Positions 1 to 59,198 of a stretch of 64,000 nucleotides of DNA are shown here, in pieces. Where the stretch lies: positions 36,294 through 100,293 of the IMG/VR virus record IMGVR_UViG_3300022562_000520. One strand, written 5' to 3'. A model generated the notes under the pieces. The model saw nothing but the letters and a program-made list of their open reading frames with translations. It was not told the origin of the DNA and did not search any database. A program made the translations under genes and the position numbers. Source of the DNA: a virus. Positions within the stretch are counted from its first letter, which is position 1. Each line of letters opens with the position of its first letter.

Positions 1-3000
1 AATCATAAGCAAGATTTGGAAATGTAGGAACATTGTCATATAAACGCGTTTCAATTTCATAGATAGTATCCCCCAATAAAGTATCAAGGTTTACTTCTTG
101 CCATGCAGAAATTGTTGCGGTTGTTACATCATTTGGATCTGTTCCATTATGCAATCTTCCACCACCCAATAATAGACCTGTTACTTCATTCCATTCTACA
201 TTACCCTGATAATCAGTTTCTTTTATACGTAAAACTTCTAAACTTGGTGTCAAATCCATCCACAACGTTCCATCTGGAAGTGATGATGATGGTTGATCTT
301 CACCAGATTCTGCCACAATATAACGATATAATATGTTAGGTTCACCAGATTTAATTTGATACCAATAAACACCTTCTCTGTTTGATATAGCATCAAAGCT
401 TGTTAAAAATTCGGAAATATTGTCGGGTGGAGACATTGATGATGTTACACCAATACCTCTATCAATAGTTCTAGGATCTGGTGAAGATACTACTAATTGA
501 GAAATAATATCTTTTGTAGCTTGTGTTAATTTATAACTATGACGATGGCCATCATGATGAACAACATCATTAAGGGACAAATTATCATCGACTATTCTAT
601 TAGGAGTCATAGCATTGACAAGATTAATATATGGAAGTGTGGCAATCCAATTTCTAATACCAATATCATTACTACCTTCTACATCTATAAAAGTTGTAGA
701 ATCTCCATATACAAATGATGCTTGATCATTTAATTCGTGTTCTGTTATAACATTAGTAGCAACATAAGAAGATAAATCTAGGATGTTTGCTATTTCTAAA
801 TTTGTAAGTAAAGATATAGCATTTTCACGATAAATTTCTTTAACTGAATTTAGTAACTTTTCATATTGATCGTGGGCAAATTCTATTAATGTTCTTGGTG
901 TAACAGTATCAATAAAAATGGATGATAGTAAATTATCAAAACCATAGTTAAATTCTTTAATAGTTCCACCATATCCATAATTTACGTCATTAATAGGTAA
1001 TAAATTAAACATACCATCTTTAGAGCCTGTATAACCAGGAATCAATGGTTGTTCTTCAATAATTGTTGAAAAATGTGTTAATAATTCGCGGGAATTTAAA
1101 TATTTGCGATTTTCATGTAAATGATTATAATATAATGGATCTGGTATTTCCCAATCACCGATCCACGTGCCTGTAGAAGAAAGATGGTTAATCTGACTTT
1201 GGAACCATTCTTGTGTTGCCTGTGTAATGGCTTCTGCTTCTATAGTATATGTTCCTTTAAGTATTAATTCAGCAGCACGAGCTGTGATATAATCATCCTT
1301 CTCTGTATTATATTCTTCTAATGAACGTACATCCCAATCTACTTTTTCTGGAATATACATTTCATCGTTTAATCCACCTTTCCAAATGGTTTGTAAATTT
1401 ATATCCGTTACATAGTTATCAAATTTTTCAATTTCTACCCATATATTACCAGATACAAATCTTCTATATAATTTATCTAATACAGGATTATACCAATATA
1501 ATCCATCAATAGCACGTAAACGAGAGTCTGGTTCTACTTCACTAACTATAGCTTTAGTATAGTGTTCTGACATTTCTGTCTTATCGCTCCATTCTACACC
1601 TCTCCAAAAATATACAACCTGTGTATCAGGATTATACCAATAATCTTCTTCTTTATTAGCATAATCACGATAGGCATATAAAACACCGTCATCTTCTTCT
1701 AGTAAAAATTGGTCAAATTCATATATGTCATTGACTGAATCATATACTATACGAAATCCAGTATTAACATTAATTTCATATTCCGAGGATGTTCTATATC
1801 CAAAAATTGGATTAGCTTTATATGCTGGCGTTCCATCAACATTAAATATATCAAATAACGGATATTGATTAGTTCTAGTTTTTATCTGTTCTACTTTACG
1901 ATAATTAATTAAACTTATAGCAGAATCACCAACTAAATCATAAGTTTCATCACTTTCTACCATTCTAACTTTATTTAAATGACTACCCAATTCATCAATA
2001 GAAGAAGCACCTACTTCAATAGCAACATTTAATCCAGCATCAACTGGGTTAAAAAATTCTATACCAACTACATAAACAGTTATACCATTTTTATTAGAAG
2101 AAAAGTCAGGATCAGCATCAGGTTGAATTGGTGATGTGATATTTGATATATCACCGCTTATTGTAGCACCTGGTGGAATTCCTGGACTACCGCTGACACG
2201 TATTCTATTTGAATTAGGTACAGTTGGTGGTATAACTTGAAAATCCATAGTTCCAAAATTGCTATTTCCAGATACACGAATTGTATCACCAGTATTAAAA
2301 TATTGTGAGTAATTTCCATCAACTATAAATTCATTCGTATCATAATCTATGGATATAATATCTAAAACTACTTCACCCAATTCATCATATGTTCCAAATT
2401 GGCGTTCTATATCAGTTCCAGCTGCATTAGTAAGGTAAACACGTATATCATCAAAACCATATAATGCTTGACGATTCAATGGACGGGTGTGTCCTACTTC
2501 TATACTATCAGTTAGATAAAATGTTGACCAACTATTTCCCGGTGAACCGACCTTTGTTACGAAATATTTTTGTTGATATGCCGATGTTGTATATTCATAA
2601 ACTTCACTTTGTGGTGATCCACCATCATATCCAAGTATTGGTGTTGCAGAATCTGATATAGCAATATATGGATTATCCACTTGGTGGGGGGCTGGTGTAG
2701 CATCGTCTGCACCAAGAAATAACCAATGCACTCCATAACCTTGCCACACATCATCCATAACGGTTTTAAAAGGATAGATTTCATATGTATTAGGTATTAA
2801 GTTAATAAGATCACCGGTTGAGTTTGGTTTTACTGTAAAAGTAACAAACGTTCTATATGGATGTGTACTAGGGCTTGACTTGTATTCAGAATAATCAACC
2901 GTATATATTGTAGGTGATGTTCCATTACTAATATAAACCTGTTTACCAGCCACGAAGTAATCTGTTAAATCACCATAACGTGTATCAAATATAACTGTTT

Positions 3001-4726
3001 TATTATTAATATCTACACTACTTTCAAGCTCCCACCATGTAATTGGTGCAATTTCTATTGAAGGCGGTTTAATATCTGTAGCGGAGAATATATCATCTAC
3101 TTCGCTTCGATATGACCAGTTGTATAATATTCTTGTCCATTCATTTAATTCTAAATCCCAATCGTATTCAATAATTGGTTGTGTGGCTCGTCTGACAGAT
3201 GCGTAATTTGTAATATCATTTTTATGTACCCATTTATTTTGCGAAATCCACTGATCCATGGCTTCTATTCTTGGTCTTATATCACATGCTTCAGTAAGAT
3301 CCCATAAGGCAAATCCTGTTGTAGCATCGAGTAATAAGTTAAAATTATTCCAAAGAATCTTCCAACCTATTGTAGTATCATACTGATAAAGTCTGTTATT
3401 AGTGGAATCGTGCCATAATTCATCTTGTGAGCCAGCACCAACTGGTGGGCCTGCATTGGTGATACTATCAATGAAGTTTGTGTGGTCTGAAATACCATCA
3501 CTTACAGGATTACCAAAACTATCTATAACATCACCCCATAATGGAATGTTTGGGTTATCATCCCACAAATTTCCTTCATCCCATCCGCCCAATATACCAC
3601 ATTGACAGTTCTTTTCAGCTATATAAACTGAATACTGTTCATTTAATGATAATTCACCACCCAAAACCGTATTATCCGTGACCGCGTTTTTAATAGTTAT
3701 AATTGTTTGTAAATTATCAATATCTGCTTCCGAACTGACGATTTCAATATATGAGTTATTTAATTCAAGGTTGGCCAGATTTCGTATAAAGATAATAAAA
3801 CCTTCTTTAAATAATTCTGAATAGTCACCGCTTTCTAAACCGGATGATGTTACTACTTCTGGTGAACCTTCATATGTAAGAGTATAATTTGACCCGATTA
3901 CAATTTTATCAAACCTGCGAAGTTTTAATGTTCCTATGGAGTTCTCATTAGTGACTAGATCATTAACGGTAAATATAGTTAAATTGTTAACCCCATCATA
4001 TACTGGTAAACTATTAACCTGATGTGCACCATTATTATACGCCGTTCCTTCAATAGTAAAGTATTCATTTTCTGATAAGCTACTGGTTGCATCACCAATA
4101 ACACTAATTTCATTTCCTGAAAAATCTATATTAGAGATTGTATATGATGGTAAGCTGTTTATGTTATCGGCGGGTAACATTTCAACAAGAGGGAAAGTAT
4201 CACCATATTGATTCATTATGCTTTCCCACCATGTTACTCTTGAAGTAGCTGTGGAGCATTTGTTACGAACGGTTATATATTGTGGAAGTTCATTAGTTTC
4301 AGAATCCCAATAATAATCACGATAGTTTATTATTTTATTAATATCGATTGGTGGTGCCCAGTTGAATTTTTGGGTTGCACCCCAATTAGCAAAATCTTCA
4401 AGGTCTACACCCAATCTTTCTAATTCGTGTTGGATATCTTTCCATGAAGCCATGTGTTCTATGGAACCAATTTTATCATATAGGATAGGTTGTAACTGGA
4501 AGGCTTGACGATGAACGTCTTTTTCTTTTATTTGACGTTTAACTATAGCGGAGCTATTTCCTTTACCAATATAACCCGCGACCTTATCTACTTCCTGTTT
4601 AGATAGGTATCTATTAAACAAGTTGCTGAATAGGCTGATATTTGTATCAGACTGATATGGCTCTGGCAGCAAATGTACCAAATCCATAAAAGCTTTTGTA
4701 TAATCTGATTTATTATTGTGCGACAC
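1..4726 (-). CDS. Giant baseplate wedge/virion structural protein, >1570 aa, truncated at the left window edge
   Basis: Absent from the ORF track because its stop lies outside the window. Read by hand: GTG at 4726 after GGAGAA and a late ATAAATA box, giving VSHNNKSDYTKAFMDLVHLLPEPYQSDTN...FNWAPPIDINKIINYRDYYW. Spot-checked segments down to ...EIETRLYDNVPTFPNLAYD at position 2 are in the same frame. Follows the gp6-like gene. Confidence 0.8.
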   Translation of the reverse strand, partial: MSHNNKSDYTKAFMDLVHLLPEPYQSDTNISLFSNLFNRYLSKQEVDKVAGYIGKGNSSAIVKRQIKEKDVHRQAFQLQPILYDKIGSIEHMASWKDIQHELERLGVDLEDFANWGATQKFNWAPPIDINKIINYRDYYWDSETNELPQYITVRNKCSTATSRVTWWESIMNQYGDTFPLVEMLPADNINSLPSYTISNIDFSGNEISVIGDATSSLSENEYFTIEGTAYNNGAHQVNSLPVYDGVNNLTIFTVNDLVTNENSIGTLKLRRFDKIVIGSNYTLTYEGSPEVVTSSGLESGDYSELFKEGFIIFIRNLANLELNNSYIEIVSSEADIDNLQTIITIKNAVTDNTVLGGELSLNEQYSVYIAEKNCQCGILGGWDEGNLWDDNPNIPLWGDVIDSFGNPVSDGISDHTNFIDSITNAGPPVGAGSQDELWHDSTNNRLYQYDTTIGWKILWNNFNLLLDATTGFALWDLTEACDIRPRIEAMDQWISQNKWVHKNDITNYASVRRATQPIIEYDWDLELNEWTRILYNWSYRSEVDDIFSATDIKPPSIEIAPITWWELESSVDINNKTVIFDTRYGDLTDYFVAGKQVYISNGTSPTIYTVDYSEYKSSPSTHPYRTFVTFTVKPNSTGDLINLIPNTYEIYPFKTVMDDVWQGYGVHWLFLGADDATPAPHQVDNPYIAISDSATPILGYDGGSPQSEVYEYTTSAYQQKYFVTKVGSPGNSWSTFYLTDSIEVGHTRPLNRQALYGFDDIRVYLTNAAGTDIERQFGTYDELGEVVLDIISIDYDTNEFIVDGNYSQYFNTGDTIRVSGNSNFGTMDFQVIPPTVPNSNRIRVSGSPGIPPGATISGDISNITSPIQPDADPDFSSNKNGITVYVVGIEFFNPVDAGLNVAIEVGASSIDELGSHLNKVRMVESDETYDLVGDSAISLINYRKVEQIKTRTNQYPLFDIFNVDGTPAYKANPIFGYRTSSEYEINVNTGFRIVYDSVNDIYEFDQFLLEEDDGVLYAYRDYANKEEDYWYNPDTQVVYFWRGVEWSDKTEMSEHYTKAIVSEVEPDSRLRAIDGLYWYNPVLDKLYRRFVSGNIWVEIEKFDNYVTDINLQTIWKGGLNDEMYIPEKVDWDVRSLEEYNTEKDDYITARAAELILKGTYTIEAEAITQATQEWFQSQINHLSSTGTWIGDWEIPDPLYYNHLHENRKYLNSRELLTHFSTIIEEQPLIPGYTGSKDGMFNLLPINDVNYGYGGTIKEFNYGFDNLLSSIFIDTVTPRTLIEFAHDQYEKLLNSVKEIYRENAISLLTNLEIANILDLSSYVATNVITEHELNDQASFVYGDSTTFIDVEGSNDIGIRNWIATLPYINLVNAMTPNRIVDDNLSLNDVVHHDGHRHSYKLTQATKDIISQLVVSSPDPRTIDRGIGVTSSMSPPDNISEFLTSFDAISNREGVYWYQIKSGEPNILYRYIVAESGEDQPSSSLPDGTLWMDLTPSLEVLRIKETDYQGNVEWNEVTGLLLGGGRLHNGTDPNDVTTATISAWQEVNLDTLLGDTIYEIETRLYDNVPTFPNLAYD

Positions 4727-4787: not shown

Positions 4788-7700
4788 TTATTGACGGATA
4801 TTTTCCGGTGTAAATGACTGAACAATTTCAATGTTCTGCGTAGATATATCAGGTACAAAGATTTCATTTTCACGGGATTGAACTTGAAACAAATCACCAA
4901 ACTGGTTTGTAGAAAAGGTTGGAACCAACACGATTGATTTTATTTCAGGACCAAGTGCGGCATGGATTGAAGCGGACAATTCGGTAAAAAAGAATGTACT
5001 ACCAAAATCCCAATCATCAATGTCAAAATAATCACGAATAACTTCAACGATTCTAACTTTAACTTCATTATCAGTTAAGTTACTGATTTCAGGGCGTATT
5101 ACTTTAAATGTAGCTTGTAATTCTGGAATTGCACGACTTCCAAAAAGTATTTTAAATAAACCAGTTTGTAATATTACCGTATCAGATATCATACGATTTT
5201 CAAGTAGGCTGTCATAGGCCGTTCTTAAATCTAATGGCGTTGGTGCATCTGGACTAATGTCAGTTTTATTTTCGAGCCAACGTGTAACACTTTCATAGTA
5301 GCCAGAAGTAATTATAAACATATCTATAATATTAGACGCAGCTGGATCTACTAAATGAAAACGCGGGGTTGTATAAAACCATGCAAAGTTCAAAGGATAT
5401 CTTCCATGTTCACGTCTATAAAGTCTATTGCGTTCAGAATTTAATAAATCAAGATACCATGCGGAACGAACAATAGCTGTATCCGTTACTGGAACCCATT
5501 CACTTGTTGAAGAATCGCGATTAAAATATACAAACTGCTTAGTACTAATTTGTATAGTCTGTCCTGCTGTAGTTCCATTTACGGTTAAATTTGTAAGTTC
5601 GGTACCTGTAACAGGTTCTATATTAGAAACGGTTCCATAAACAGTCGGGGAACCAAAATTCAATACCGGGGAACCACCAAAAGTTGGTAATAATTGGTCA
5701 TGTGATAGTGGATCATTATATTGACCTATCGGAATAGTTGTATATCCTGGTGAGCCGCCTGTATAAACTGCGCCCGTACCATCGTTTAAAACACTATACG
5801 TACCATTATAGTTACCATATGATGGATCTGTTGCACCATTTTGTATTCTTATTTTTGAACCTATTGGAAAATCTGCGGTAACATCACCTGATACTAAGAC
5901 AGTATCTGGCGCTGATGGTGAACCTGGCATTGGTGAACCAATAGGGTTATTAATAATATTAACATCAATTATATCAAAAACAGGGTATAATCCCCAAGTT
6001 CCTATTGTGGCAGACCCATTGTCATAGTCAAAAACAGTACCATCGACGCTTACCAATACACTATCTGCTTCTGTACCATTTATAAAATATTGTGATGGTT
6101 TTATGAAAGTTACAGAAGTATAATCGTCTGTAGCTGCAAAAGTATCTGTAGAATATAATAATTCTAACTGGTCAATTTGATCTGGAATACCGTCATCATT
6201 AGTATCTGTTGGTATAACAAACAATCTACTATCATCTGGAACTCCAGCATTTGGAAGATTTTGAGCTACTAATTCTTGACCTAAAACGTTGTAAATTTTA
6301 TTTTCAGTTAATACTGCATCCAAATTTCCATTTAAATTGGCGCGTAATATAACAATATTATCGTCATTAGAAGTTAATGTATTAAAGTTTATTACGCTTG
6401 ACGTATTAGCATTTCTAAATTTAGTGCTAACGCTTTGCGCATTCATACGTTTAACTTGCCAACGTACTGTCCATCCTGATAAATTGCTTGCTGTAAATTG
6501 CGCTTCAATTCTTATCATAAGACTTGAAGAAAATGGCAAGCCAGTTGATGGATTTATAGTTGTATTTGGTCCAACCGTCCAGTGTGGTATTTCAACGGTT
6601 GGGCTTCCAACAGCAGTTTGTGATTTAAAGTATAAATCTACCTGTGGGTTTGCTGACGTTGCTGCACTATTGAGTGCCGTTTCTATAAATGGTCTTTCTA
6701 AATCAATATCAAAAGTACAAGGTATTTGCCCAAGAATATTATAAAAATCACCACTACATAATAATGGTTCTACAAGATTGGTTATTACTTCATCCGCAGT
6801 TAATGCTAAATTTGAAATAGCAACGCCACCATTATTAATATCGTCTTCTACCCAAAATAATGCTAAATCTTCACCGAAAATTTTAACATCTTCATAGTAT
6901 TCTTTAGGATCGTGCCACGCTATATACTTAGAATCACCAGCAAACGTTCTATTAACTGCTTGTAATTTCAATATAGAGGGGTCTTGTAACATAAAAGAAT
7001 TATAGTCACGGCCATTAACCATTCTATCCTGTGTATAATAAACAGATGGTGCAACCCTACGAATATGTTCAATATCTTCAGAAACCGAAGCATTTTGTAA
7101 AGAATTTATTAATGAGAATGTAAACTTAAAAGTCTGTGTAGTATTTGTTAGGTCAAGATATGTAAATGATGCCGTTTGATCTACAACAGATGATTTTTGT
7201 ATAATACTATTACTGTTCGCAGAAATTCTGTACCAAATATCAAATTCACCAGAAGGTATATCTGAGAATTCCCCGTCACCAAAAATTAATCGTACTTGGT
7301 CATTATCTAATGTTTCAATTTCATATTTTTGACGATTTTTATCTGTATTAAAAATTATATTTTGCGCATTCGCCAAATCAACTTCGGTCCATTCACCATA
7401 TCTACCAATACCGTCTTCTAAGTGTGGCAATATATCTGCATATGGATTAGTTTCTACGATAACACGTGTACTTGGATCTACATTATTGAGCCAAACATCA
7501 GTTTCATTAATATTGCTAACTAAAATATCGTGGGTTTGGTTTGGGGTAACACCATCGAAAGATTGGGTTACTAATTGTAATGTTCCTTGTTTTGTAAAGC
7601 AGAAAAATCCTGTGGTATCTGAACCATCACCCAAACCATCTGAACCGTACAAAATTGAAAATTTGGCGTTTCTTTCGGGACGTTTTTCTACAGGCGAAGT

Positions 7701-8357
7701 TGATGTCAATGTAACAGGTACCAACTCCATTGGGAATGCTGTACCTGATGATGTTGCAGAATAGTTAAATGTTGAAACTCCACTACCCTTTAACGGTTGA
7801 TTGTTCCAAGTATATAACTCAAACAATACGTCTTCTATCTGTACACGTTCATTCGGTGAAACGGTTCCAAAATCTTGTTCTAAAACACGATTCAATACAA
7901 GTAAAAATTGTTCTTTCCAATCTGGATTATTTAAATCGTTCCAAACTATTTTGGTGTTAGCTAAATTTCTACCTTGCGAATCATTAACTTGTTCTGTAGT
8001 TTGAATAGATGTTATTTTAACTAAACCACGCGCAGCAATATTTCTTGATACTTTATAAGATATTAATTTTGCAAGACGAAGGATGGATTCTTTACGTTCA
8101 GCAGTACTGATAAAGTTTTCGTGGGCATTTAAATCAAGTCTGTAAGAAATGATTTCACCAACGTATGCAAATATTTCAAGGATTGCTATAAATTCACTTG
8201 ATTCAATATAATCGTTAAAATCTTCAGGAAAGTAAAGTTTTACATAATCTAAAAGACTTTCTTTGATTGTATTATAATCGAACGCCGAAAAGTTAACACG
8301 GGTAAATACCTCGTGTGCGCGTGTCCAAGCCTCCGCTCTAGATATTTCTATAGCCAT
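4788..8357 (-). CDS. gp6: Baseplate wedge subunit, T4 gp6-like, with a large central insertion
   Basis: N-terminal DYNTIKESLLDY...DFNDYIESS, ENFISTAERKESILRLAKLISY, LIFGDGEFSDIP and EDIEHIRRVAPSVYYTQDRMVNGRDY are gp6/J-like motifs. ATG at 8357 follows GAGGA. Confidence 0.9.
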   Translation of the reverse strand: MAIEISRAEAWTRAHEVFTRVNFSAFDYNTIKESLLDYVKLYFPEDFNDYIESSEFIAILEIFAYVGEIISYRLDLNAHENFISTAERKESILRLAKLISYKVSRNIAARGLVKITSIQTTEQVNDSQGRNLANTKIVWNDLNNPDWKEQFLLVLNRVLEQDFGTVSPNERVQIEDVLFELYTWNNQPLKGSGVSTFNYSATSSGTAFPMELVPVTLTSTSPVEKRPERNAKFSILYGSDGLGDGSDTTGFFCFTKQGTLQLVTQSFDGVTPNQTHDILVSNINETDVWLNNVDPSTRVIVETNPYADILPHLEDGIGRYGEWTEVDLANAQNIIFNTDKNRQKYEIETLDNDQVRLIFGDGEFSDIPSGEFDIWYRISANSNSIIQKSSVVDQTASFTYLDLTNTTQTFKFTFSLINSLQNASVSEDIEHIRRVAPSVYYTQDRMVNGRDYNSFMLQDPSILKLQAVNRTFAGDSKYIAWHDPKEYYEDVKIFGEDLALFWVEDDINNGGVAISNLALTADEVITNLVEPLLCSGDFYNILGQIPCTFDIDLERPFIETALNSAATSANPQVDLYFKSQTAVGSPTVEIPHWTVGPNTTINPSTGLPFSSSLMIRIEAQFTASNLSGWTVRWQVKRMNAQSVSTKFRNANTSSVINFNTLTSNDDNIVILRANLNGNLDAVLTENKIYNVLGQELVAQNLPNAGVPDDSRLFVIPTDTNDDGIPDQIDQLELLYSTDTFAATDDYTSVTFIKPSQYFINGTEADSVLVSVDGTVFDYDNGSATIGTWGLYPVFDIIDVNIINNPIGSPMPGSPSAPDTVLVSGDVTADFPIGSKIRIQNGATDPSYGNYNGTYSVLNDGTGAVYTGGSPGYTTIPIGQYNDPLSHDQLLPTFGGSPVLNFGSPTVYGTVSNIEPVTGTELTNLTVNGTTAGQTIQISTKQFVYFNRDSSTSEWVPVTDTAIVRSAWYLDLLNSERNRLYRREHGRYPLNFAWFYTTPRFHLVDPAASNIIDMFIITSGYYESVTRWLENKTDISPDAPTPLDLRTAYDSLLENRMISDTVILQTGLFKILFGSRAIPELQATFKVIRPEISNLTDNEVKVRIVEVIRDYFDIDDWDFGSTFFFTELSASIHAALGPEIKSIVLVPTFSTNQFGDLFQVQSRENEIFVPDISTQNIEIVQSFTPENIRQ

Positions 8358-8358
8358 A

Positions 8359-8736
8359 TTAATCCTCAAATTGGATGTTTAATTCAAAATCATCCACCTT
8401 ATTTAATTCTATATAAAACAATGTTGCATTAACATACAACGAGTTAGTATCAAAATCTGGTGTTACAGACATGTTTACCAGATTTATTCTTGGGTCATAG
8501 TCGAAAATAGCCAAAAGTTCAGCATATACTTCATCCACCAAATCTTCATCTAATGGTTCAAACGCTAATTCAGGTATAATACTTCCAAATTCTGGCATCA
8601 TCACACGCGTACCTTTCACTGTAAATATATGATTTAACAGATCCATTTTCACCAGTTCAACATCACGAAGTCTTAAAGACTTGTTTTTTTGAAACTCGAA
8701 TGAGGAATATCCCCTGTAAAGATTAGTGCGTGCCAT
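8359..8736 (-). CDS. gp25: Baseplate wedge / sheath initiator, gp25-like
   Basis: DLLNHIFTVKGTRVMMPEFGSIIPELAFEP...YDPRI is the gpW/gp25 signature. Probable start is MARTNLY at 8736. Confidence 0.9.
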   Translation of the reverse strand: MARTNLYRGYSSFEFQKNKSLRLRDVELVKMDLLNHIFTVKGTRVMMPEFGSIIPELAFEPLDEDLVDEVYAELLAIFDYDPRINLVNMSVTPDFDTNSLYVNATLFYIELNKVDDFELNIQFED

Positions 8737-28475: not shown

Positions 28476-28479
28476 TAAA

Positions 28480-36400: not shown

Positions 36401-36537
36401 GTGGGATATCTTTAAATGCATCGGAATTGATTACACAAGCAAATACGATACGTGAAAAGTTAGAAGAAGAAGTAGATAATTATATAGTTGATACACCAGA
36501 AGATGTAGGTCAGTATTCAACGTTTATTTTAGGTTAA
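33445..36537 (+). CDS. gp13: Neck protein gp13-like, with a ~770-aa N-terminal Trp-rich repeat extension
   Basis: C-terminal LRAQLGYPAIKVELT, WIERYALSEAMLMLAQIRGKFSSLPGAGGGISLN is the gp13 signature. Upstream are repeats of P-x-x-x-x-x-G-x-[YL]-W-[YF]. Confidence 0.85.
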   Translation: MSVFDPIGDSAFALKTEGQEIKLTFKQGVPATGQGTVEWNIPTPAHGCNSGEAGAYAGILILLRTEPLDASNIPQDGEIYVADPTADADLSTADKIGDAFVVGVFYEAELKAQNGTLTTSLVINNIKPNTAYYIGGYAVDAQYRYHSEGVRAYSDSYGDKAGTGIPSYQHVKLGTNGSGILPTDGTGLLPGATYEFDIIVDNSFPTGYDYRTIQVSIDGINAGTYQDLVDEINKQMQLSDNPPQSPVPPNTNSFYWDPAEEQLYQFDGTTHDKIDAIVEPTDPAVIAMGTYWYDSANKVLNRNNIPNPTGWNVINHIEGEYDLTNPECSLYWYNGTIGRKWDSTTWCNQITLVSAEDPSICPTVQCGTYWYNEAALTLYKWNETTIRWDEKSAIYWPEAPNTLSDGTYWFNDTSNKLNLRVGSTWSDITSTSIISEIEPTTLTDGLVWYKSSTEELKIYSTSLSAWVDTDILVWAEDPTDVNSCDLWWNSTNDELKVWDVVNNEWDLVISFVISSNDPSQITAIVVDTLWYNTTDSSLTRWDGSDWVAVDFIEKITDPTVLVMGDAWYNPTTNEWKVYNTPASGWNIINPIDSPFDPTSIPNNTYWYDTTNNALFVRNGTTWTTVTFSTIPYFPIRKSMWYDTSENILKMWDGTAWVEAEYDVSAYINPAGGITFRTTKLGSSTAILIPTPPGSVSEPVVVGTGFADFTEFDINPVTGYTYERDTTGRVYSARLINDGSFLWSNLSPYGKLQVPTAGNDGKSGVPSYMEIGVGTDGTPDERRELMDSLRAQLGYPAIKVELTNYQLDTAIQNALETFRTVTGSAYRRGFYFLNIEPGKQQYIMTNRVMGYHRIVNVTAAYRFTSAFLSSAHGSGVYGQVVLQHLYNMGTFDLTSFHLVAQYVEQLEHLFATRLTHTFHENNRVLSFFNSFTRPERVLLDCMIERTEQDLFKDRLTKRWIERYALSEAMLMLAQIRGKFSSLPGAGGGISLNASELITQANTIREKLEEEVDNYIVDTPEDVGQYSTFILG

Positions 36538-36548
36538 GGAGAAAAACC

Positions 36549-37019
36549 ATGTCAATATTAGACAAAGTAATAAAAGAAATGGGCGGCTATGGTGACATGG
36601 GCATTCCAGATAATAAGGATATGATGGATGCAACTACAACTACAGCTACTGATAGCCCTGTAGTACGTAAAGCATATCGATTATCTGATATTCTTCGTCA
36701 CCGAACACAGTCTGAAGAAGAAGAGTTTAATACATTAGAAGATGATACAGATGATCTTGGAGAAATAAAGCAATTTTTTATAGATAATCCAGAACCATCC
36801 GATGAAGATGTAGAAGCATTTGCAGAAGAACATGGGTTAGATATGCAAGAAATGCGTAGATTGGTTTATAGTCTTATTTCCTCATTGTTGGATGAAGAAG
36901 AACCAATGGATGATGATATGTCAGACGATGATATGTCAGACGATGATATGTCAGACGATGATTCAATGGATAGTGACGTTGATTTTGGTGATGAAATTGA
37001 CTTTAAATCAAAAGTATAA
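36549..37019 (+). CDS. Very acidic small protein, probably head-internal
   Basis: AAGGAG RBS, MSILDKVIKE start, FFIDNPEPSDEDV helical domain and MSDDD repeats. Confidence 0.65.
   Translation: MSILDKVIKEMGGYGDMGIPDNKDMMDATTTTATDSPVVRKAYRLSDILRHRTQSEEEEFNTLEDDTDDLGEIKQFFIDNPEPSDEDVEAFAEEHGLDMQEMRRLVYSLISSLLDEEEPMDDDMSDDDMSDDDMSDDDSMDSDVDFGDEIDFKSKV
36912..36962 (+). repeat. 15-bp tandem repeat, about 3.4 copies
   Basis: GATGATATGTCAGAC x3 plus GATGAT; encodes (DDMSD)n. Confidence 0.95.
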
Positions 37020-37033
37020 GGTAAAAATAATTA

Positions 37034-38737: not shown

Positions 38738-39513
38738 TGGCAACATCAGTTTTAGAAAACTACCACTATTCAAGTCAATTGCGCAAATATATTGTACAAT
38801 TTGCGGCTATATTTGCGGGTATTCAAGTTCAGGTTGGAATGCGAAATGATAAAGAACCAGAATTAATACACGTTCCTATAAAAAACGCCAGTACTGATCG
38901 GGTTGTGGCTGCAATAAAAGGCGAAAACACACAAAACAAACCTATTAGGTTACCTATAATGACATTCCAATTGGTTAACGTTGATATGGCACCAGAATTG
39001 CGAAAAGGTGTGGGGGTTAAACGTAGAACCACCTATATGCCAACGGGCGGCCAATTTCCAGATGATATGAAGGTGGTAGAACAACGCCAACCCGTACCAT
39101 ATCGTGCTGTTTTTGAACTGTTTATCTGGGCTAGTAATCAAGACCAACACTATCAAATAATGGAACAAATATTTACACTTTTCGATCCACAATTACAAAT
39201 CCAGACGGATGATGACATATTTGATTGGACAAAAATGACTTCCGTAGAAATGTTGGATGTTAGATTTGATGAAACCGTACCCGTAGGTGGTGATAGAAGA
39301 TTAATTCAATCTAGATTGGGATTTATGGCACCTATTTACCTTTCGGTACCAGCAAAAGTCCATGATAATTATGTTAAAGATATTTACCTTAGAATTGGTG
39401 CGGTCGGAAGTAATGTAAAAAATTCATACGATATTATAGCAGATTTGGATGCACAGGGTGAAGAATATGAAAAAGTATTCTCCCTAAGTGACGTAGATAT
39501 AACCAAAATTTAA
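38737..39513 (+). CDS. gp15: Tail terminator / sheath stabiliser
   Basis: YSSQLRKYIVQFAAIF, PVPY, WASNQDQHYQIMEQIFTLFDP and DWT. Confidence 0.85.
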   Translation: MATSVLENYHYSSQLRKYIVQFAAIFAGIQVQVGMRNDKEPELIHVPIKNASTDRVVAAIKGENTQNKPIRLPIMTFQLVNVDMAPELRKGVGVKRRTTYMPTGGQFPDDMKVVEQRQPVPYRAVFELFIWASNQDQHYQIMEQIFTLFDPQLQIQTDDDIFDWTKMTSVEMLDVRFDETVPVGGDRRLIQSRLGFMAPIYLSVPAKVHDNYVKDIYLRIGAVGSNVKNSYDIIADLDAQGEEYEKVFSLSDVDITKI

Positions 39514-39542
39514 TAAGATTTGCGGGTTTTTGGGTACGTCTT

Positions 39543-39550
39543 TATAAATA
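39543..39550 (+). promoter_or_regulatory. Late promoter for sheath
   Basis: TATAAATA. Confidence 0.75.
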
Positions 39551-39608
39551 CTAACAGCCACAATAGGGTAGTGGATTAAAATAATATTAAGTTTAAGGAG
39601 AATCCGAT

Positions 39609-41360
39609 ATGGCAACTTTGGTAAGCGCAGGAGTAAGCGTAACAGTAACGGATGAAAGTTTTTTCATCCCTGTGTCAGCACCTACCGTTCCGTTGTTTTT
39701 TATTGCTACAGCAGACGAAAAGCTTCAGCCGGATGGTATTACACCAGCTGAAGGCACTTATGAATACGATGTTGTTCGTACTGTTACATCTTTGAGCCAG
39801 AGTACACAATTATATGGTATTCCACGTTTCCTTGAAGATGGTACAACAGGCGATCCACACCACGGCGATGCAAGAAATGAATATGGTTTATTTGCATTGA
39901 ACCAGTACCTTGGCATAGGCAACCGCGCATATGTTATACGTACAAATGTTAATTTAAATGACGATATCGCAGATATTCGCGATATGTTTGATGCGAAAGC
40001 ATTAGAAGCACAGATTGCACTTTCCAACCTTGTACAAAATTTTATAAATGAAAAAGATGCTTTAGCTGGTGACCTTCCAGGTACAACAGTAACAGTAACA
40101 GCTACAGAACTACAAGATCTTGCAAGAACCGCAATGGCAGACCTTTTTGAAGCATATTCTTTTGTTAACATAGAAACAGATTTCTTTGGTGCTGTTGGTT
40201 TAGCATCAGCACTTGATATATTTGCTAATGGTTATGATATGGCATCGACAGGAATATACGATGGTTTTGATTACGTATCAAGTAATATTGGTCTTTATCC
40301 AACTTTTCCAGGTGGTGGAACAATTGCTGGTGAATTTACGCCAACTGAAGCAGGTGATTTTTTACTTGCCGCTACAGATGATTTTAAATTTACACTTGAA
40401 TTTTTAAACGGAACAATGCTTGGCGCTAATGATGCCGCTCGCCGTGTTGCTATCGTAACTGCATTACAAGCATCTATTAATGGTAACACTGACATTCGTG
40501 CAGAAAACTTTGATTATAATTTGATATTGTGCCCAGGTTTTCCTGAAGTAGTAGACGAACTTCTTGCACTTGTGGCCGATATGCAAGACGAAGCATTAGT
40601 TATTGCTGATACCCCAATGGATAAAAGTCCAGATGGAATCACAAATCCATCTACAGGATGGGCTGCAACAACAGCACGTCAACGCTCTGTACATGTAGCA
40701 TACTATTATCCACACGCACTTGCTTCTAACCTTGATGGTAAGAATGTAGTTGTTGCGGCATCTGGTGTTGCATTGCGTACTTACACATATAGTGATAATG
40801 TATCTTATTTGTGGTTTGCACCAGCTGGTATTCGTCGTGGTACTATTACAGGTATTAGTGATTTGGGATATGTTACTGGCGAACTTGGTACACCAACAAC
40901 ATTTGTTTCTGTAGCATTAAATCCAGGACAGCGCGATGCATTATATCAATATCTTGCAAGTGGTGATATCAACCCTATAGCATTCTTTCCAGGAAATGGA
41001 TTTGTTGTATGGGGTCAAAAAACATCAGCACCTGCTGCTAGTGCGATGGATCGTGTAAACGTTTCACGATTAATCAAATATATTAAACGCCAACTTCGTA
41101 GAAATACGTTGAGTTTTGTGTTTGAACCAAATGATCAGTTAACACGCGATAATTTAAAAGCGGTCGTTGATTCTTTCCTTGGTGATTTGATTATCAAACG
41201 CGGCTTGTATGACTTTGCTACGGTTTGTGATGATAGTAATAACACACCAGATCGTATCGATAGAAATGAAATGTACATAGACATTGCTTTAAAACCTGTT
41301 AAAGCGGCTGAATTTATTTACATTCCAATTCGTATAGTTGCAACCGGAGCAGAGATTTAA
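39609..41360 (+). CDS. gp18: Contractile tail sheath protein
   Basis: LVSAGVSVTVTDES, WFAPAGIRRG, WGQKT, DRVNVSRL, FEPND, VCDDSNNTP and KPVKAAEFIYI. Confidence 0.96.
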   Translation: MATLVSAGVSVTVTDESFFIPVSAPTVPLFFIATADEKLQPDGITPAEGTYEYDVVRTVTSLSQSTQLYGIPRFLEDGTTGDPHHGDARNEYGLFALNQYLGIGNRAYVIRTNVNLNDDIADIRDMFDAKALEAQIALSNLVQNFINEKDALAGDLPGTTVTVTATELQDLARTAMADLFEAYSFVNIETDFFGAVGLASALDIFANGYDMASTGIYDGFDYVSSNIGLYPTFPGGGTIAGEFTPTEAGDFLLAATDDFKFTLEFLNGTMLGANDAARRVAIVTALQASINGNTDIRAENFDYNLILCPGFPEVVDELLALVADMQDEALVIADTPMDKSPDGITNPSTGWAATTARQRSVHVAYYYPHALASNLDGKNVVVAASGVALRTYTYSDNVSYLWFAPAGIRRGTITGISDLGYVTGELGTPTTFVSVALNPGQRDALYQYLASGDINPIAFFPGNGFVVWGQKTSAPAASAMDRVNVSRLIKYIKRQLRRNTLSFVFEPNDQLTRDNLKAVVDSFLGDLIIKRGLYDFATVCDDSNNTPDRIDRNEMYIDIALKPVKAAEFIYIPIRIVATGAEI

Positions 41361-52886: not shown

Positions 52887-55814
52887 ATGAGTTTTATAAT
52901 TAAAAATACCTATTCTGGTAGCCCACTAATTGCAATTGCAATTGATGACTTAGGTCTTACCGTACCAGCAGGAGGAACGTATAATTTATTATTCGAGAAT
53001 CCTGGTGATGTACAAGCATCTGCACAATCTGGCGGTGATTTAAGTAATGCTATCAATGCTGGTAATATTGTAGTGGTAGACCCACGCGATGGCGTTACAG
53101 ACCTTTCTCTCGCAGATAGTCTTATAGTTGCAAGATCACATAACGATCCGCATTATGGTATAAGAGGCGCGAGAATGACAGACCTCGACGATGTTGTCGG
53201 GTCACCTGTTCCAGTTACAGGTCAAGTTCTTCAATTGAATGGTTCAAACCAATGGGTAAGTGTTCCACCAAGCACAGTTGCTGGCAGCATTTCTCTTGGC
53301 GATCTTTCTGATATTAATCCTGATACAGGTTCTCCATTCCGTCCTACTACATCATTCTTTATTTTAGAAGGTGATGGTGCAGGTGGACTTAATATAGTAG
53401 ATGGTACAACAGATACCACATTATTCATCCCATGGGTTGAAGATACTGCTGGTGCTATGGTTGCAGGTGGTACACAAACGAACCTTACCTTAACATATAA
53501 TACTGGTACAAACCAAATTGATGCATCTGTTAATGATGTTTACTTATTTAATACTGGTGATACATTAGATTCAGGTACATTAACAATCGCATCGGGCGCT
53601 TCAATTGTTGTAGCAACTGGCGCATCTATTTCATGGTCTGATGCTCCAACACAAGCAGCACATCTTGCTAATAAAGAATATGTTGATAGTGTCGCCGCAG
53701 GTCTTGACGTTCGCGAACCTGTTAAAATAGCTTCAACTACTAACATTACAGGTTACGCGCTTGGTTCACCCGAAGGCCCAGGTTTCTTTACAGGTGTAGA
53801 CCTTACAACTATGGATGGTGGCTATAGCCCTATCGCAGTTGGCGACCGTGTTCTTATTAAGAACCAAACAGATGCTAAACAAAATGGTATCTATGTTGTT
53901 CAAGGTACTGGCTCTCCATTAACACCAGCGGGTTCTCCAATTGGTTCAAGTGTAACACTTGTTCGTAGTGCAGCACTTTCTGGTTCGCCATCATCAGAAG
54001 TACACGCGGGTGTTTATACGTTTGTTGAAAACGGCTCATTATATGCTAAAACAGGTTGGATACTTCAAGGCTCTGGATTTTTAACAATTAATACAGATGA
54101 TCTTATTTGGGCGCAATTTTCCGCTGCAAATAACTATTCTGCTGGTATTGGTTTAGGATTGACTGGTAATCAGTTCTATCTTGATATTAATAACCTTACA
54201 GATACTGCTATTGCTACAACAGACTCAATAGCATTTAATGATTCTACTGATACTGTTACCAAAAAACGTACGATGGCCAACGTCATCACCGATTTAGGTA
54301 TCTATACTTCTGGTAATTTAACAGCATCTGACGGTGTTACATTTGTTGGTAGTGATATTCAATTAGATATTACTAACTTAACTGGTACAAACGTTATTAC
54401 ATCTGCTGATGAAATGGTATTTGATGATGGTGCCTCTGGTACACATATCAAACGTACAGTTTCTAACTTCTTAGCAGACTTAGACGTTGTTAATAGTTTA
54501 GGTGGTAATGGTTTTGCAGTTCAAACCGCTGCTGATACTTATACTGCTCGTACATTGACAGCTTCTTCAACTGCTAGTGAAGAAGGTATTATCATAACAA
54601 ATGGTGATGGTGTTGCCGCTAACCCAACTATTGGTATTGATATTGAAGGTACAACAGCTTCTGGCTCTAATATGGCCGCTACGGATGAATTCCTTGGTTT
54701 TAATGGAACTAACAACCGTGCATTTACAGGTCAACAGATTGCCGATGGTGTCTTTTCTATTTTAGGTGGTATCGGTAATGCTTATACTACAATCACTGGT
54801 GATACGGGTTCAGCAACCGCCGCATCTTCATCTGATACATTAAGATTTATTGGCGCTGCAAATGGTGGTATTCTTACAACTGTTGTAGATGGTGCACCAG
54901 ATACAGTATCTTTTGAAATAGATGTTTATGCATTGGCAAATGGTGCAAGTACAATTGCACTTACTGATAGAATTATTGTTGGTGAAGGTGGTTCACCATT
55001 AGGACCAACAGTAAGTTACACAGTTCAAGATTTGTTCGATGATGTAAAAGTTCCATATAATATAGGTACTAGTGCGGGTTTTGTTATTAGCACTGGTGCT
55101 AATGATTATTCAACAACCACACTTGCCGTCAATGGCGCAGGTGATAGAGATGGTCTTATCATAGTTAATGGCGCTTTAACAGGCTCACCATTTGATACTA
55201 CTGTTACTATTGGTTTAGATATTAATGGTAATGCTTCTGCTGGTGAAAATATTGCAGCTGGTGATAAGTTCCTTGGTTATAACCTTTCTGGAACTGCTAA
55301 CCAAGCATTCACTGGACAAGAAGTTGCAGATGGTGTTGCAACAATCTTAGGCTTTGGTGGCCTCGCTGTTACAACAATCAACGGACAAGAAGTTTTAACA
55401 CTTGTTGATACAACACGTGCTAACAAAATTCTTTCTGTCGGTGATACATCTGTTACATTCTCCGATAACCGTGTAGGTAATAATGATTGGTTACAAGTTG
55501 GTGCAGCTGTAGATGCGCTTAGTGGATATATTGTACCATTAAATGCAACTATTGTTAAAGTAACTGGACACACTTCAGATAACAACGGTCTTACAAAAAG
55601 TATCGATTTATACGTTGATGATGTTCTTAATAGTACTATTGGTACATTTAACGGTGCCGCAGGTTCACCACAGATTATAGGTCAGGATGAATTTAGAAAT
55701 GTAACGGTAAATGTTGACGTTAACCAAGACCAAAAAATCACATTACGTGGCGATGCGGGCGGTGGAACAATCGACGATACTGTTATAACAGTTTGGTTAA
55801 AATGGCGGGGATAA
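52887..55814 (+). CDS. Fibre/appendage protein (975 aa)
   Basis: Gly/Thr-rich; ANKEYVD knot, VGDRVLIKNQTDAKQNGIYVV fibre module, internal repeats and 10 GSP motifs. Confidence 0.8.
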   Translation: MSFIIKNTYSGSPLIAIAIDDLGLTVPAGGTYNLLFENPGDVQASAQSGGDLSNAINAGNIVVVDPRDGVTDLSLADSLIVARSHNDPHYGIRGARMTDLDDVVGSPVPVTGQVLQLNGSNQWVSVPPSTVAGSISLGDLSDINPDTGSPFRPTTSFFILEGDGAGGLNIVDGTTDTTLFIPWVEDTAGAMVAGGTQTNLTLTYNTGTNQIDASVNDVYLFNTGDTLDSGTLTIASGASIVVATGASISWSDAPTQAAHLANKEYVDSVAAGLDVREPVKIASTTNITGYALGSPEGPGFFTGVDLTTMDGGYSPIAVGDRVLIKNQTDAKQNGIYVVQGTGSPLTPAGSPIGSSVTLVRSAALSGSPSSEVHAGVYTFVENGSLYAKTGWILQGSGFLTINTDDLIWAQFSAANNYSAGIGLGLTGNQFYLDINNLTDTAIATTDSIAFNDSTDTVTKKRTMANVITDLGIYTSGNLTASDGVTFVGSDIQLDITNLTGTNVITSADEMVFDDGASGTHIKRTVSNFLADLDVVNSLGGNGFAVQTAADTYTARTLTASSTASEEGIIITNGDGVAANPTIGIDIEGTTASGSNMAATDEFLGFNGTNNRAFTGQQIADGVFSILGGIGNAYTTITGDTGSATAASSSDTLRFIGAANGGILTTVVDGAPDTVSFEIDVYALANGASTIALTDRIIVGEGGSPLGPTVSYTVQDLFDDVKVPYNIGTSAGFVISTGANDYSTTTLAVNGAGDRDGLIIVNGALTGSPFDTTVTIGLDINGNASAGENIAAGDKFLGYNLSGTANQAFTGQEVADGVATILGFGGLAVTTINGQEVLTLVDTTRANKILSVGDTSVTFSDNRVGNNDWLQVGAAVDALSGYIVPLNATIVKVTGHTSDNNGLTKSIDLYVDDVLNSTIGTFNGAAGSPQIIGQDEFRNVTVNVDVNQDQKITLRGDAGGGTIDDTVITVWLKWRG

Positions 55815-55817: not shown

Positions 55818-56492
55818 ATGGCTTTTATAGTTCGTAATCTTACGGGCAGCACAGTAGAAATTAATGATCTTGGTTTATCGTTAGCTGCCCTTACGGATTA
55901 TGACCTAGCATATGATGAAAATCGTGATATAGCGGATAGTGATGATTTAATATCCGCTATAAATGCAGATACAGTTATCATACTTGACCCATTGGGTGGT
56001 TCCCCCACATTACCATTATCTAAAGCAGAAAGTATTAAATGCATTCTTTATGCAAATAATCCTCATTTTGGTATTGTTGGTGGAAAGCTTCGCCAAATAG
56101 ACGATGTAACCATTTCAGGCTCACCTGCTCTCCCCACTAACGATCAAGTTTTAATTTATAATACATCAACGTCCGTGTGGGAAAATCACGACGCTGCCCC
56201 ATCTGATAGATTTCAAAGTATTGCAACGATTTCAACGGATTATTCAAGTACTACAAATATAGTTGTTTTGGTTAATACTACAACAGCTGGTGTAACCATA
56301 ACGCTGCCTACCGCAGCTGCTTTTGCTAAAAAATTCTTTCATATTAAATGGATAGCTGGCCCATCTAAAAATAAAGTTACTATTATAACACAAACAGGCG
56401 AAACATTAGATGATCAAACAGAAGTTAAATTAGGTCAATTATATGATAGTTTAAATGTCGTAAGTGATGGTTCTAATTGGTGGATTATCTAA
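55818..56492 (+). CDS. Short fibre-associated protein sharing its N-terminus with 52887-55814
   Basis: INDLGL...NNPHFGI; C-terminal TITLPTA...VVSDGSNWWII module. Confidence 0.7.
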   Translation: MAFIVRNLTGSTVEINDLGLSLAALTDYDLAYDENRDIADSDDLISAINADTVIILDPLGGSPTLPLSKAESIKCILYANNPHFGIVGGKLRQIDDVTISGSPALPTNDQVLIYNTSTSVWENHDAAPSDRFQSIATISTDYSSTTNIVVLVNTTTAGVTITLPTAAAFAKKFFHIKWIAGPSKNKVTIITQTGETLDDQTEVKLGQLYDSLNVVSDGSNWWII

Positions 56493-56808: not shown

Positions 56809-57465
56809 ATGTCAGGTGAAACAGTTTTAATTAGCGCCGGAGCTAAAAGAAATAGAGCACTAGTAACAGAAGACGGTCAAGTAAAAACATATTCGGCTGT
56901 AGAATCAGAATTTGCAAGTCGCTCGGAAGAGCATAGACAATCATATGAATTCCATCCACATGGATTTGATCTCATTGCTGATAAATGGAATGCTGTATAT
57001 TATATGAAAAATACATCTTCCGATAAAAACTTTCATATTGAATATGTTAGAATGGGAACATCTGGTGGTTATACAACATACACTAAACCAATGCAATTTA
57101 GAATGTATGCTGAAATGACGGCACCAGATACGAATGTTATAACAGGTCAATTTGGTGTAAGTGCAGGCTCTCATAATTTATATATTGGTTCAGAAATTAA
57201 TCCTGAAATGGAAATCATCTTTTTTGATAATTTAGGCTCACCATTAACAGGTGATGGTATGACTATTGGCGGTGTTGCAATGACATCAACACAGCTTGGA
57301 AGTTTATTTAATTGTGGACCACTTGGTGTAGGTTCAACATATTTAACATATGGTGGAGCATTAATACTTCCACCTAGTAGAAGTCTTGGTATTACATTGA
57401 AACCCTTTGTTGAAGATACAAAAGGATTTGCTGTTGTGGCAGGTTATTTTAAGGACGTAGAATAA
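56809..57465 (+). CDS. Virion beta-sandwich protein, paralogue family member 1
   Basis: AGGAG RBS; RALVTEDG, YMKNTS, YGGALIL. Confidence 0.65.
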   Translation: MSGETVLISAGAKRNRALVTEDGQVKTYSAVESEFASRSEEHRQSYEFHPHGFDLIADKWNAVYYMKNTSSDKNFHIEYVRMGTSGGYTTYTKPMQFRMYAEMTAPDTNVITGQFGVSAGSHNLYIGSEINPEMEIIFFDNLGSPLTGDGMTIGGVAMTSTQLGSLFNCGPLGVGSTYLTYGGALILPPSRSLGITLKPFVEDTKGFAVVAGYFKDVE

Positions 57466-57477: not shown

Positions 57478-58056
57478 ATGGAATTTCAATTATTTGGTGC
57501 AACTGTACAATCTTACGGAATGGGTGTTAACTCAGAAGGACGTGGTTTAGTAGAATCTGTTGAAATAACAAACTTAACAAACGCCGCTAGAAAAGGTAAA
57601 GCGTTTCTGTTAACTTCCGATTTTATATCTTTAACACCGGGAAGTCCACTAATACATAACGGAATCATATTTCTTAAAAATACTTCTGATACGGAAATAA
57701 TGAAAATAGATAGGATTCGTACATGTGGAACACAAACTAATAGATGGCGAATGATAAAGAACCCCTCTACTGGAACATTAATAAGTTCAGGCTCTAGTAT
57801 AAGTTTTAATAATACTAATTTTACTTCAGGTATTGTTGCACCAGCAACTGCGAAAGTAGGTTCAAATGGTTCTACAGTAACAGACGGCACGTTGATAGGA
57901 CAATGGATAAATGGTACAGGACATTCATTAGAAGAATATAGAGGTGGTATTCAATTAGGTACTAATGACTGTATAGCTTTAACATGTTATGTCGAAGCAG
58001 CCGCTTCGGTATGTGCTAACTTATTAATGTTTTTTGATACAGATAATGGTGTTTAA
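57478..58056 (+). CDS. Virion beta-sandwich protein, paralogue family member 2
   Basis: AAGGAG RBS; GVNSEG, FLKNTS, YRGGIQL. Confidence 0.65.
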   Translation: MEFQLFGATVQSYGMGVNSEGRGLVESVEITNLTNAARKGKAFLLTSDFISLTPGSPLIHNGIIFLKNTSDTEIMKIDRIRTCGTQTNRWRMIKNPSTGTLISSGSSISFNNTNFTSGIVAPATAKVGSNGSTVTDGTLIGQWINGTGHSLEEYRGGIQLGTNDCIALTCYVEAAASVCANLLMFFDTDNGV

Positions 58057-58709: not shown

Positions 58710-59198
58710 ATGGCACATCAAGGTACTACAGATAGAACACCAGATGGCCGCATGAAAGTTTATGCGACATCAAAACCACACGATACATCAACGTATTTTA
58801 CGGGCGCTGGTGATAATGTTGGTATAGGTGACGGTGAACGATTGTTGTTTCATTTAACAGCATTAGATGCGTATAAATCCGTTGATATAACTTTTATTTC
58901 AGATATATGGATTAAAGATGGTTTTATGATAGTTGATAATGCACCATTTGGTGCATATCTTAATATCGAGGTTGTAATGCCTGGCTCGCCAGAAATAATT
59001 CTTGGTTCATTTGGATATAGTGTTCCAATTTTTGGTTCAGGGTGGTTTCCCATGAATACAGAAGATTGTGCTTTAATCCCAGCTGGTATAATCATGCGTA
59101 TAACAGTTTATAATTCGGATGATACAGATCCAGCACAAGATGCGCCAGCAGAATTTCGTGTAGCAGGTAGATTGGAAATGTTTAGGACCGATACTTAA
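58710..59198 (+). CDS. Probable virion protein
   Basis: 162-aa beta-rich ORF in the cassette; one GSP motif. Confidence 0.6.
   Translation: MAHQGTTDRTPDGRMKVYATSKPHDTSTYFTGAGDNVGIGDGERLLFHLTALDAYKSVDITFISDIWIKDGFMIVDNAPFGAYLNIEVVMPGSPEIILGSFGYSVPIFGSGWFPMNTEDCALIPAGIIMRITVYNSDDTDPAQDAPAEFRVAGRLEMFRTDT

Follow-up and report, generated by a model that had tools for sequence, protein, structure and literature searches.

Bacterial glycosylation sequons are short: D/E-x-N-x-S/T for N-linked glycans and D-S/T-A/I/L/V/M/T for the O-linked glycans of the Bacteroidota. These systems work in the periplasm and on secreted proteins, and it is a feature of sequon systems that gain and loss of the motif track the presence of the enzyme. 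In the cytoplasm, Maf enzymes attach O-linked glycans to surface Ser and Thr residues of flagellin (PMC4065374; 10.1101/2020.06.03.131540). The sugar donors of the Maf (PF01973/DUF115) system are CMP-activated nonulosonic or ulosonic acids. Glycosyltransferases encoded by mycobacteriophages decorate virion proteins with glycans (Freeman et al. 2023, as summarised in PMC12619734), the glycans being carried by the C-terminal ends of the capsid and tail-tube subunits. The subject here is a tripeptide, Gly-Ser-Pro (GSP), that is scattered through virion proteins of an uncultured phage far in excess of expectation, and the question of what might read it. It was noticed in the right-hand 64 kb (the window: 64,000 nucleotides, positions 36,294 to 100,293) of the viral contig IMGVR_UViG_3300022562_000520, which is 100,293 bp long with 36% GC, by an interpretation of the letters alone (the sequence-only reading). 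Because its major capsid protein is 62% identical to that of the Xanthomonas jumbo phage XacN1 and 51% to that of the Ralstonia phage RsoM2USA, the contig is judged to be part, probably about one third, of the genome of a T4-core jumbo phage. PHROG searches identify a gp6-type baseplate wedge, a hub lysozyme, portal, head-tail adaptor, sheath, large terminase, helicase and tail fibres in it.

The window holds 28 GSP in 20,220 amino acids, all in nine open reading frames (ORFs) and none in the other 47. The sequence-only reading had put about 28 in nine structural proteins, and each of its per-ORF counts is exact on recount; its four sites in the giant ORF (ending at nt 2183, 2540, 2612 and 3860) and the eight peptide strings that it quoted are all present, and the proteins that it listed as free of GSP are so. 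Each protein's own composition predicts 3.98 (Poisson P 4.5e-15); 5000 within-protein shuffles average 4.0 and never exceed 14, and a first-order Markov model predicts 6.6. GSP ranks first in enrichment among all tripeptides of the window, the second being YWY (P 3e-6). There is no excess in the window of GTP (7/4.6, observed/expected, as in all such ratios below), GAP (3/4.1), GNP (3/3.5) or SSP (3/3.9); GDP, TSP, ASP and PSG are likewise at the expected level, and Ser is the only residue enriched at the middle position of G-x-P. Together these counts establish both the enrichment and its exactness. That GSP might be no commoner than GTP, GAP or GNP had been offered as grounds for discarding the idea, and this refutation fails because those tripeptides and similar ones are at expectation. 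The whole contig has 75 GSP (6.7-6.8 expected, P 8e-51); 47 of them come from the 36 kb upstream of the window, where they lie in four proteins (501, 1125, 307 and 1029 aa) and in the remainder of the giant 3696-aa protein. Nine proteins totalling 9,271 aa carry 71 of the 75, an approximately 26-fold excess; in the remaining 22,593 aa there are four (4.1 expected), neither an excess nor an avoidance.

Sites are encoded in many ways, as the sequence-only reading had remarked. The Gly and Pro codons match background, Ser comes from both TCN and AGY, and 30 distinct 9-mers specify the 75 contig sites, a diversity that rules out a DNA-level repeat as the source of GSP. Selection therefore acts on the protein, which we regard as established, and the use of both Ser codon families argues for independent origins of the sites. 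A few sites lie inside an internal repeat of the 1125-aa protein; the flanks of most are unrelated. The sole codon bias at the contig's GSP sites is found at Ser directly 5' of Pro CCN, where TCT is strongly avoided and TCA and TCG are favoured, in the same way in three genomes.

GSP enrichment is a trait of certain phage lineages, independent of protein family. A search with gp6 led to 78 related viral loci, in some of which GSP is the top tripeptide and from most of which it is absent. Seven records make up the GSP-rich set: this contig, G001 (87/15.6), G002 (23/7.1), G003 (26/4.6), G006 (46/10.4), G007 (32/4.1) and G008 (55/3.7). In each of the seven it outranks every other tripeptide in enrichment; G001 (363 kb) is the sole complete genome of this jumbo clade, the other six records of the set being partial. 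The GSP-poor set is three genomes with no excess: G004 (292 kb, 13/14.9), G005 (271 kb, 10/12.4) and the cultured RsoM2USA (344 kb, 14/17.1). Nor is there an excess in the 40-kb fibre region of megaphage LR756502 (4/3.5). The three GSP-poor genomes nonetheless carry orthologues of the giant, gp6 and capsid proteins. GSP counts, given in the order this contig, G001, G004 and G005, are 11, 14, 2 and 1 in the giant protein, 6, 3, 0 and 0 in gp6, and 1, 1, 0 and 0 in the capsid protein; the 1029-aa protein has 14, 15 and 2 in the first three, and the gp6 orthologue of RsoM2USA has none. Comparison with orthologues, which the sequence-only reading had proposed as a check, thus finds them GSP-poor in all three of these genomes. 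Conversely, fibres of the contig that have no G001 homologue are tagged, as are G001 fibres without a homologue on the contig. Most of the 119 database homologues of a 975-aa fibre-like protein of the window have 0-2 GSP (many exactly one), and a subset has 6-15; P0031, P0069 and P0102 are distant GSP-rich fibre homologues. The 1029-aa protein yielded no relatives in a single-sequence search and five loci when a two-sequence alignment was used. These comparisons establish the restriction to lineages. In a gp6 tree, a quick one only, all the GSP-rich genomes fall in one well-supported clade, with GSP-poor G004 nested inside it, which suggests one gain of the trait and a later loss in G004. Two further composition biases may be mentioned. 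In place of GSP, G005 has PTP, TPT and TPS in large excess (PTP 122/9.7), and it encodes two GT2 glycosyltransferases near 136.7-138.5 kb. It may use a different, linker-type tag. GSP-rich G006 has collagen-like GPQ/PQG repeats (34, with 6.5 expected).

Once placed, the tripeptide is kept better than its surroundings. The contig and G001 are 64% identical overall; 22 of 36 sites (61%) are retained exactly as GSP in proteins whose 12 residues flanking the sites are 33% identical, the baseline for a fully identical tripeptide in this pair being 0.33 (conservation contrast, P 2e-23). Sites that are not conserved are lineage-specific and usually lie within insertions of 3-6 residues. At GSP columns G004 has gaps or near-misses (GQS, GTP, ESP, GAP), as expected of decay after loss of the trait. 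The fibre orthologues P0002 and P0003, 58-59% identical to the 975-aa protein, have one GSP each, and against them its sites read as SP plus 2-5 residues inserted after a pre-existing Gly. A domain common to this fibre, Limnohabitans phage DC31 and cyanophage PSS2 is free of GSP in both of the latter; relative to them a tight hairpin is lengthened by 14 residues that bear two GSP. Loop-insertion anatomy and conservation can accordingly be taken as established, and the sequence-only reading, which from paralogue comparisons had described a loop insertion repeatedly gained on exposed surfaces, is borne out by GSP-poor orthologues and outgroups as well. The fibre was modelled with AlphaFold (50-sequence alignment, mean pLDDT 71.7). 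In the model all 10 sites fall outside helices and outside strands of at least 3 residues, several of them in locally low-confidence loops flanked by confident strands; this is supportive only, coil making up about 60% of the model and being the state that all three residues prefer.

Around the tripeptide, 299 distinct sites pooled show a weak preference for T, G or S before and A or L after, with K, R, N and Y avoided in adjacent positions. Sites are isolated (median spacing 55 residues) and sometimes tandem, 4-7 residues apart. Collagen-like G-X-Y repeats are rejected on these grounds, there being no tandem triplet runs. The formylglycine motif C/S-x-P-x-R, substrate of radical-SAM anSME enzymes, is rejected too: Pro is at +1, Arg is not enriched at +4, and Arg is depleted only directly next to the motif. 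G-[S/C]-P as the true motif fails in its turn, since the GCP excess of G001 (15/3.2) is all in GCPxC zinc fingers of DUF723/DUF4379 homing-endonuclease-like genes, a family with repeated fingers of this kind that is represented at contig 16608-17534 and by six copies in G001.

The features of the window that bear on the distribution of GSP are collected in Table 1.

Table 1. Features of the window, and one of the contig to its left, with their GSP content (window positions, except where contig is stated)
Feature	Coordinates	Strand	Basis or remark
Giant baseplate-region protein	2..4726	-	N-terminal 1575 aa of 3696 aa, runs past window edge
gp6-type baseplate wedge subunit, 1193 aa, 6 GSP	4788..8369	-	PHROG baseplate wedge E 3.5e-263, residues 8-554
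DUF488 protein	contig 20380-20820		Replication region, between DNA polymerase and 5'-3' exonuclease
Core virion genes, GSP-free except one capsid site	26607..41360	+	PHROG assignments
Portal, 0 GSP	26607-28253	+	PHROG
Major capsid protein, 1 GSP at residue 141 of 487	31052..32515	+	62% identical to XacN1 capsid
Head-tail adaptor, 0 GSP	33445-36537	+	PHROG
Sheath, 0 GSP	39609-41360	+	PHROG
221-aa fibre-region protein, 2 GSP, one being the last three residues	51373..52038	-	ORF count
975-aa fibre-like virion protein, 10 GSP, all in loops	52887..55814	+	PHROG virion structural and head-decoration families
224-aa fibre/baseplate-like protein, 2 GSP	55818..56492	+	Weak PHROG tail-fibre and baseplate matches
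218-aa Gly/Ser-rich protein, 1 GSP	56809..57465	+	No PHROG match
192-aa Gly/Ser-rich protein, 1 GSP	57478..58056	+	No PHROG match
162-aa protein, 1 GSP	58710..59198	+	No PHROG match
856-aa tail fibre protein, 0 GSP	60510..63080	+	PHROG tail fibre E 1.5e-19

The sequence-only reading had called the motif virion-wide, and this goes too far: portal, sheath, head-tail adaptor, hub lysozyme (by ORF count in the window) and the 856-aa fibre have none. What the tag marks is part of the particle's periphery, namely the outer baseplate, fibres and one capsid loop. The giant protein has four sites inside the window and 11 in its full length; in gp6 all six fall within the variable C-terminal part, residues 588-906. 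A protein adjoining the PAAR spike tip is also tagged. The capsid protein can be aligned with T4 gp23 at residues 42-98 and 219-462, which puts residue 141 in an unaligned, inserted segment; we take this to be the surface insertion domain of gp23 and gp24. G001 retains the capsid GSP, and G004 and G005 lack it. The 221-aa protein has neither a PHROG nor a Pfam match. The 856-aa protein has a clear tail-fibre C-terminus and is GSP-free, unlike its neighbours; the tag is therefore not on every fibre. Since only the nine ORFs carry GSP, the tail-tube ORF, whichever it is, is free of it. The C-terminal placement described for mycobacteriophages is not the pattern here: all but one of the 28 window sites are internal, the single capsid site among them. 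They are loop insertions built on an exact tripeptide and found mainly in proteins of the baseplate and fibres, in contrast with the capsid and tail-tube termini of the mycobacteriophages.

It is likely, in our judgement, that GSP is a tag read by some trans-acting factor. Selection would have placed it, and kept it, as a short linear recognition element in flexible loops at the surface of peripheral baseplate wedge proteins, of fibres and of one part of the capsid. As to the reader, we tentatively favour, at a level that stops somewhat short of probable, a Ser O-glycosylation sequon served by a module of genes found in relatives of this phage. A phage-encoded glycosyltransferase would recognise (T/G/S)-G-S-P-(A/L) in an accessible loop, in the cytoplasm of the infected cell before or during assembly, and the Ser of GSP would be O-glycosylated, so that sugars would coat the periphery of the tail. 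Candidate enzymes are a GT8 glycosyltransferase, Maf-like (PF01973) proteins, a 266-aa protein, a sugar-type radical-SAM enzyme and methyltransferases. All three elements, that the tag has a reader, that the module is that reader and that Ser is the residue modified, are what we infer from the patterns described here. Literature searches found no published description of a GSP tag or G-S-P sequon. Such a scheme would share with bacterial sequons a short motif in an accessible loop, and would differ from them in motif, in compartment and in substrates that are not secreted proteins.

The module was found in G001 as an island at 43.7-51.3 kb, among the G001 genes without a homologue in G004 or G005: GT8, two PF01973 proteins, several methyltransferases, a radical-SAM/SPASM enzyme and the 266-aa protein. 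It is absent from all three GSP-poor genomes. Relatives for its test were picked only by a homologue of the G001 Maf-like gene, and GSP was scored afterwards. That search of viral contigs brought up three further records, all of which, like G001, have a PF01973 protein. G009 resembles G001 and is a fragment that lacks fibre genes. G010 and G011 are ~67-kb phages (50-52% GC, 87-89% complete) unrelated to the jumbo clade, with a G001 homologue for only 6-9 of their ~100 ORFs each; four or five of these are genes of the module, at 65% and 48% identity for GT8, 70% for the radical-SAM enzyme and 58% and 49% for the Maf-like protein, the others being the gene for the 266-aa protein and a second Maf-like copy. 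GSP is in excess in each of the two phages (16/4.0 and 14/4.6, one 583-aa protein having seven sites), and three more short contigs of the ~67-kb clade, reached through that clade's capsid protein, have GSP at 6/1.4, 6/1.2 and 13/1.3. Glycosyltransferases, which the sequence-only reading had suggested looking for in the rest of the genome, are found in G001, G010 and G011, none having been found among the scanned ORFs of the 100-kb contig itself. That a strict G-S-P sequon is read by a compact module moving between unrelated phage families, sugar sites being added through 3-6-residue insertions, is possible and rather more doubtful than the sequon proposal as such.

The proposed scheme can be set beside the Maf system. 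In both, Ser would be O-glycosylated in the cytoplasm, on a protein later assembled into an external structure. G001 encodes two PF01973 proteins, one of them above the Pfam cut-off (37.4 bits, with 34.6 required), and also, as candidate CMP-sugar genes, a cytidylyltransferase and a DAHP/KdsA-type synthase (CTP_transf_3 and DAHP_synth_1), which are among its specific genes and were not seen by BLAST in G010 or G011. The Maf fold is a modified GT-A fold, like that of sialyltransferases. A model of the G001 Maf-like protein (pLDDT 79, pTM 0.82) has its best TM-score to Maf 5mu5 in a Foldseek search (E 9e-3, TMq 0.53, probability 0.99), with the MptE kinase 8sd5 at E 3e-4 (TM 0.35-0.41) and ST8SiaIII at probability 0.8. 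The nearest solved relatives of the radical-SAM enzyme are the sugar-modifying BtrN, cytosylglucuronate decarboxylase and DesII. The differences are in the substrates, phage tail proteins instead of flagellin, and in size, the phage PF01973 proteins having ~257 aa as against 632 in 5mu5.

A good deal weighs against the GT8/Maf-like module as writer of a sugar on GSP. Neither the 100-kb contig nor five other partial GSP-rich records carry it; no PF01973 gene was found on the (partial) contig by tblastn with the G001, G010 and G011 copies, nor by Pfam in the upstream ORFs, and no transferase, kinase or hydroxylase is among the contig ORFs scanned. GSP-rich G003 has the block next to which the module lies in G001 and G009, but no module beside it. 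A single complete jumbo genome, G001, ties the module to the tag. The tagged fibres of G011 are homologous to those of G001, so that the two GSP clades are not fully independent and may have exchanged tagged modules. The Maf-like model matches the archaeal MptE kinase about as well as it does Maf. Maf enzymes are not known to follow a strict sequon and accept Thr as well as Ser, whereas the phage core is exactly G-S-P, with Thr neither enriched nor used. GSP is not depleted in non-virion proteins, no avoidance being seen there (4/4.1 on the contig and 15/11.8 in the remaining proteins of G001). Finally, the module of G010 sits among DNA polymerase A and QueF genes.

The last point makes DNA modification a serious rival, if an unlikely one: GT8, the Maf-like proteins, the radical-SAM enzyme and the methyltransferases might act on DNA and not on protein, their co-occurrence with GSP arising from gene exchange or from hosts in common. 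DNA hypermodification is a common activity of phage glycosyltransferases (PMC12619734, citing Pyle et al. 2024), the G001 island adjoins gp30.3-like and nucleoside deoxyribosyltransferase-like genes, and a Maf-like fold that also resembles MptE would suit this as well. Against it, FkbM-type methyltransferases and BtrN/DesII-like radical-SAM enzymes are typical of glycan pathways, and both of the module-bearing phages with tail genes on record are GSP-enriched. The radical-SAM gene by itself is no marker of the trait: 49 low-GC viral contigs have a homologue of ~50% identity but none of the rest of the module, and they show no excess (pooled GSP 8/15.2). Radical-SAM/SPASM enzymes 50-55% identical to that of G001 are common in short viral contigs of 30-34% GC.

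Somewhat less probable again is that GSP has no reader in trans and is a favoured tight-turn or loop-capping sequence, spread by drift and by recombination of fibre modules. Loops are favoured by all three residues, the rest of the proteome shows no avoidance of GSP, and many fibre homologues have exactly one. At fibre site 366, 20 homologues have GTP and 19 have GSP; because two fibre positions are ordinary G-x-P turns across the family, a minority of sites may be purely structural. Yet a turn does not account for an enrichment restricted to Ser at the middle position, for conservation that far exceeds that of the flanks, or for Ser codons of both families. The orthologous folds of G004, G005, RsoM2USA, DC31 and PSS2 manage without GSP, and the trait appears in mutually non-homologous proteins and in two unrelated phage clades.

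We think it improbable that the loops serve for non-covalent docking, whether of a host-surface ligand, of a decoration protein or of an assembly chaperone or prolyl isomerase, with strong binding built up from many weak contacts along the tail periphery. Their anatomy (exposed, flexible, multivalent, at times tandem) is what docking would require too, and the failure to find a transferase on the contig speaks for it. But three residues make a short core for specific protein binding, what the second clade has in common with G001 is sugar genes and not a structural partner, and no candidate binding protein tracks the trait. The sole family present in 6 of the 7 GSP-rich and none of the 3 GSP-poor records is a DUF488 protein. 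Its gene is placed with those for replication, and no role in modifying proteins is known for it; we reject it as the reader and leave it as an unexplained correlate.

Least probable is a tag for another covalent modification (Pro-directed Ser phosphorylation, proline hydroxylation or other acylation) by a phage or host enzyme, a reading that the evidence for a selected, exact, loop-displayed motif fits equally and to which the PrkA/YeaH/SpoVR trio found throughout the GSP-rich jumbo clade, and the APS kinase and sulfotransferase of G001, lend colour, but against which stand the same trio in GSP-poor RsoM2USA and in LR756502, the want of a 2OG-Fe(II) prolyl-hydroxylase domain in G001 and the lack of any kinase common to G001 and the second GSP clade. 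Pro-directed phosphorylation, which the sequence-only reading had set beside O-glycosylation, thus loses its best candidate, and O-glycosylation is the one of the two that gains a candidate module in relatives. Phosphorylation at S/T-P also has Ser followed by Pro in a disordered loop; it differs in that at GSP sites Thr is unused, Gly is obligatory and PrkA does not follow the trait. PrkA, DUF444 (YeaH) and SpoVR have very strong Pfam scores in G001 (L094:3921-8744), in RsoM2USA (21.8-26.7 kb) and in 630-640-kb megaphages; on this contig the trio would fall just past the left end. Other candidate readers were set aside: peptide deformylase is missing from complete, GSP-rich G001; DUF5659 is also in GSP-poor RsoM2USA; there is no match to 2OG-Fe(II) oxygenase (PF13640) in G001; GT2 is found only in GSP-poor G005.

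Some other features of these genomes are recorded for completeness. Window positions 24243-26534 encode a 763-aa protein with 9.6% Gly and 0.3% Pro and no PHROG match, whose G001 homologue is 35% identical and which is absent from G004 and G005. G001 also encodes parts of a type I-F CRISPR-Cas system (Csy4, a Cas5fv helical domain and a Cas3-like C-terminus) and a chaperonin; these, and its APS kinase and sulfotransferase, are absent from G004 and G005.

Tail fibres and baseplates set host range and make up the outward face of the particle. If GSP is a sequon for Ser O-glycosylation, a sugar coat directed by a three-residue tag would change views of receptor binding, protease resistance and stickiness in environmental jumbo phages, and would be the first sequon-type rule for phage virion modification. 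It would also amount to a portable, programmable glycan coat for tails, and would provide a new minimal tag for cytoplasmic protein glycoengineering.

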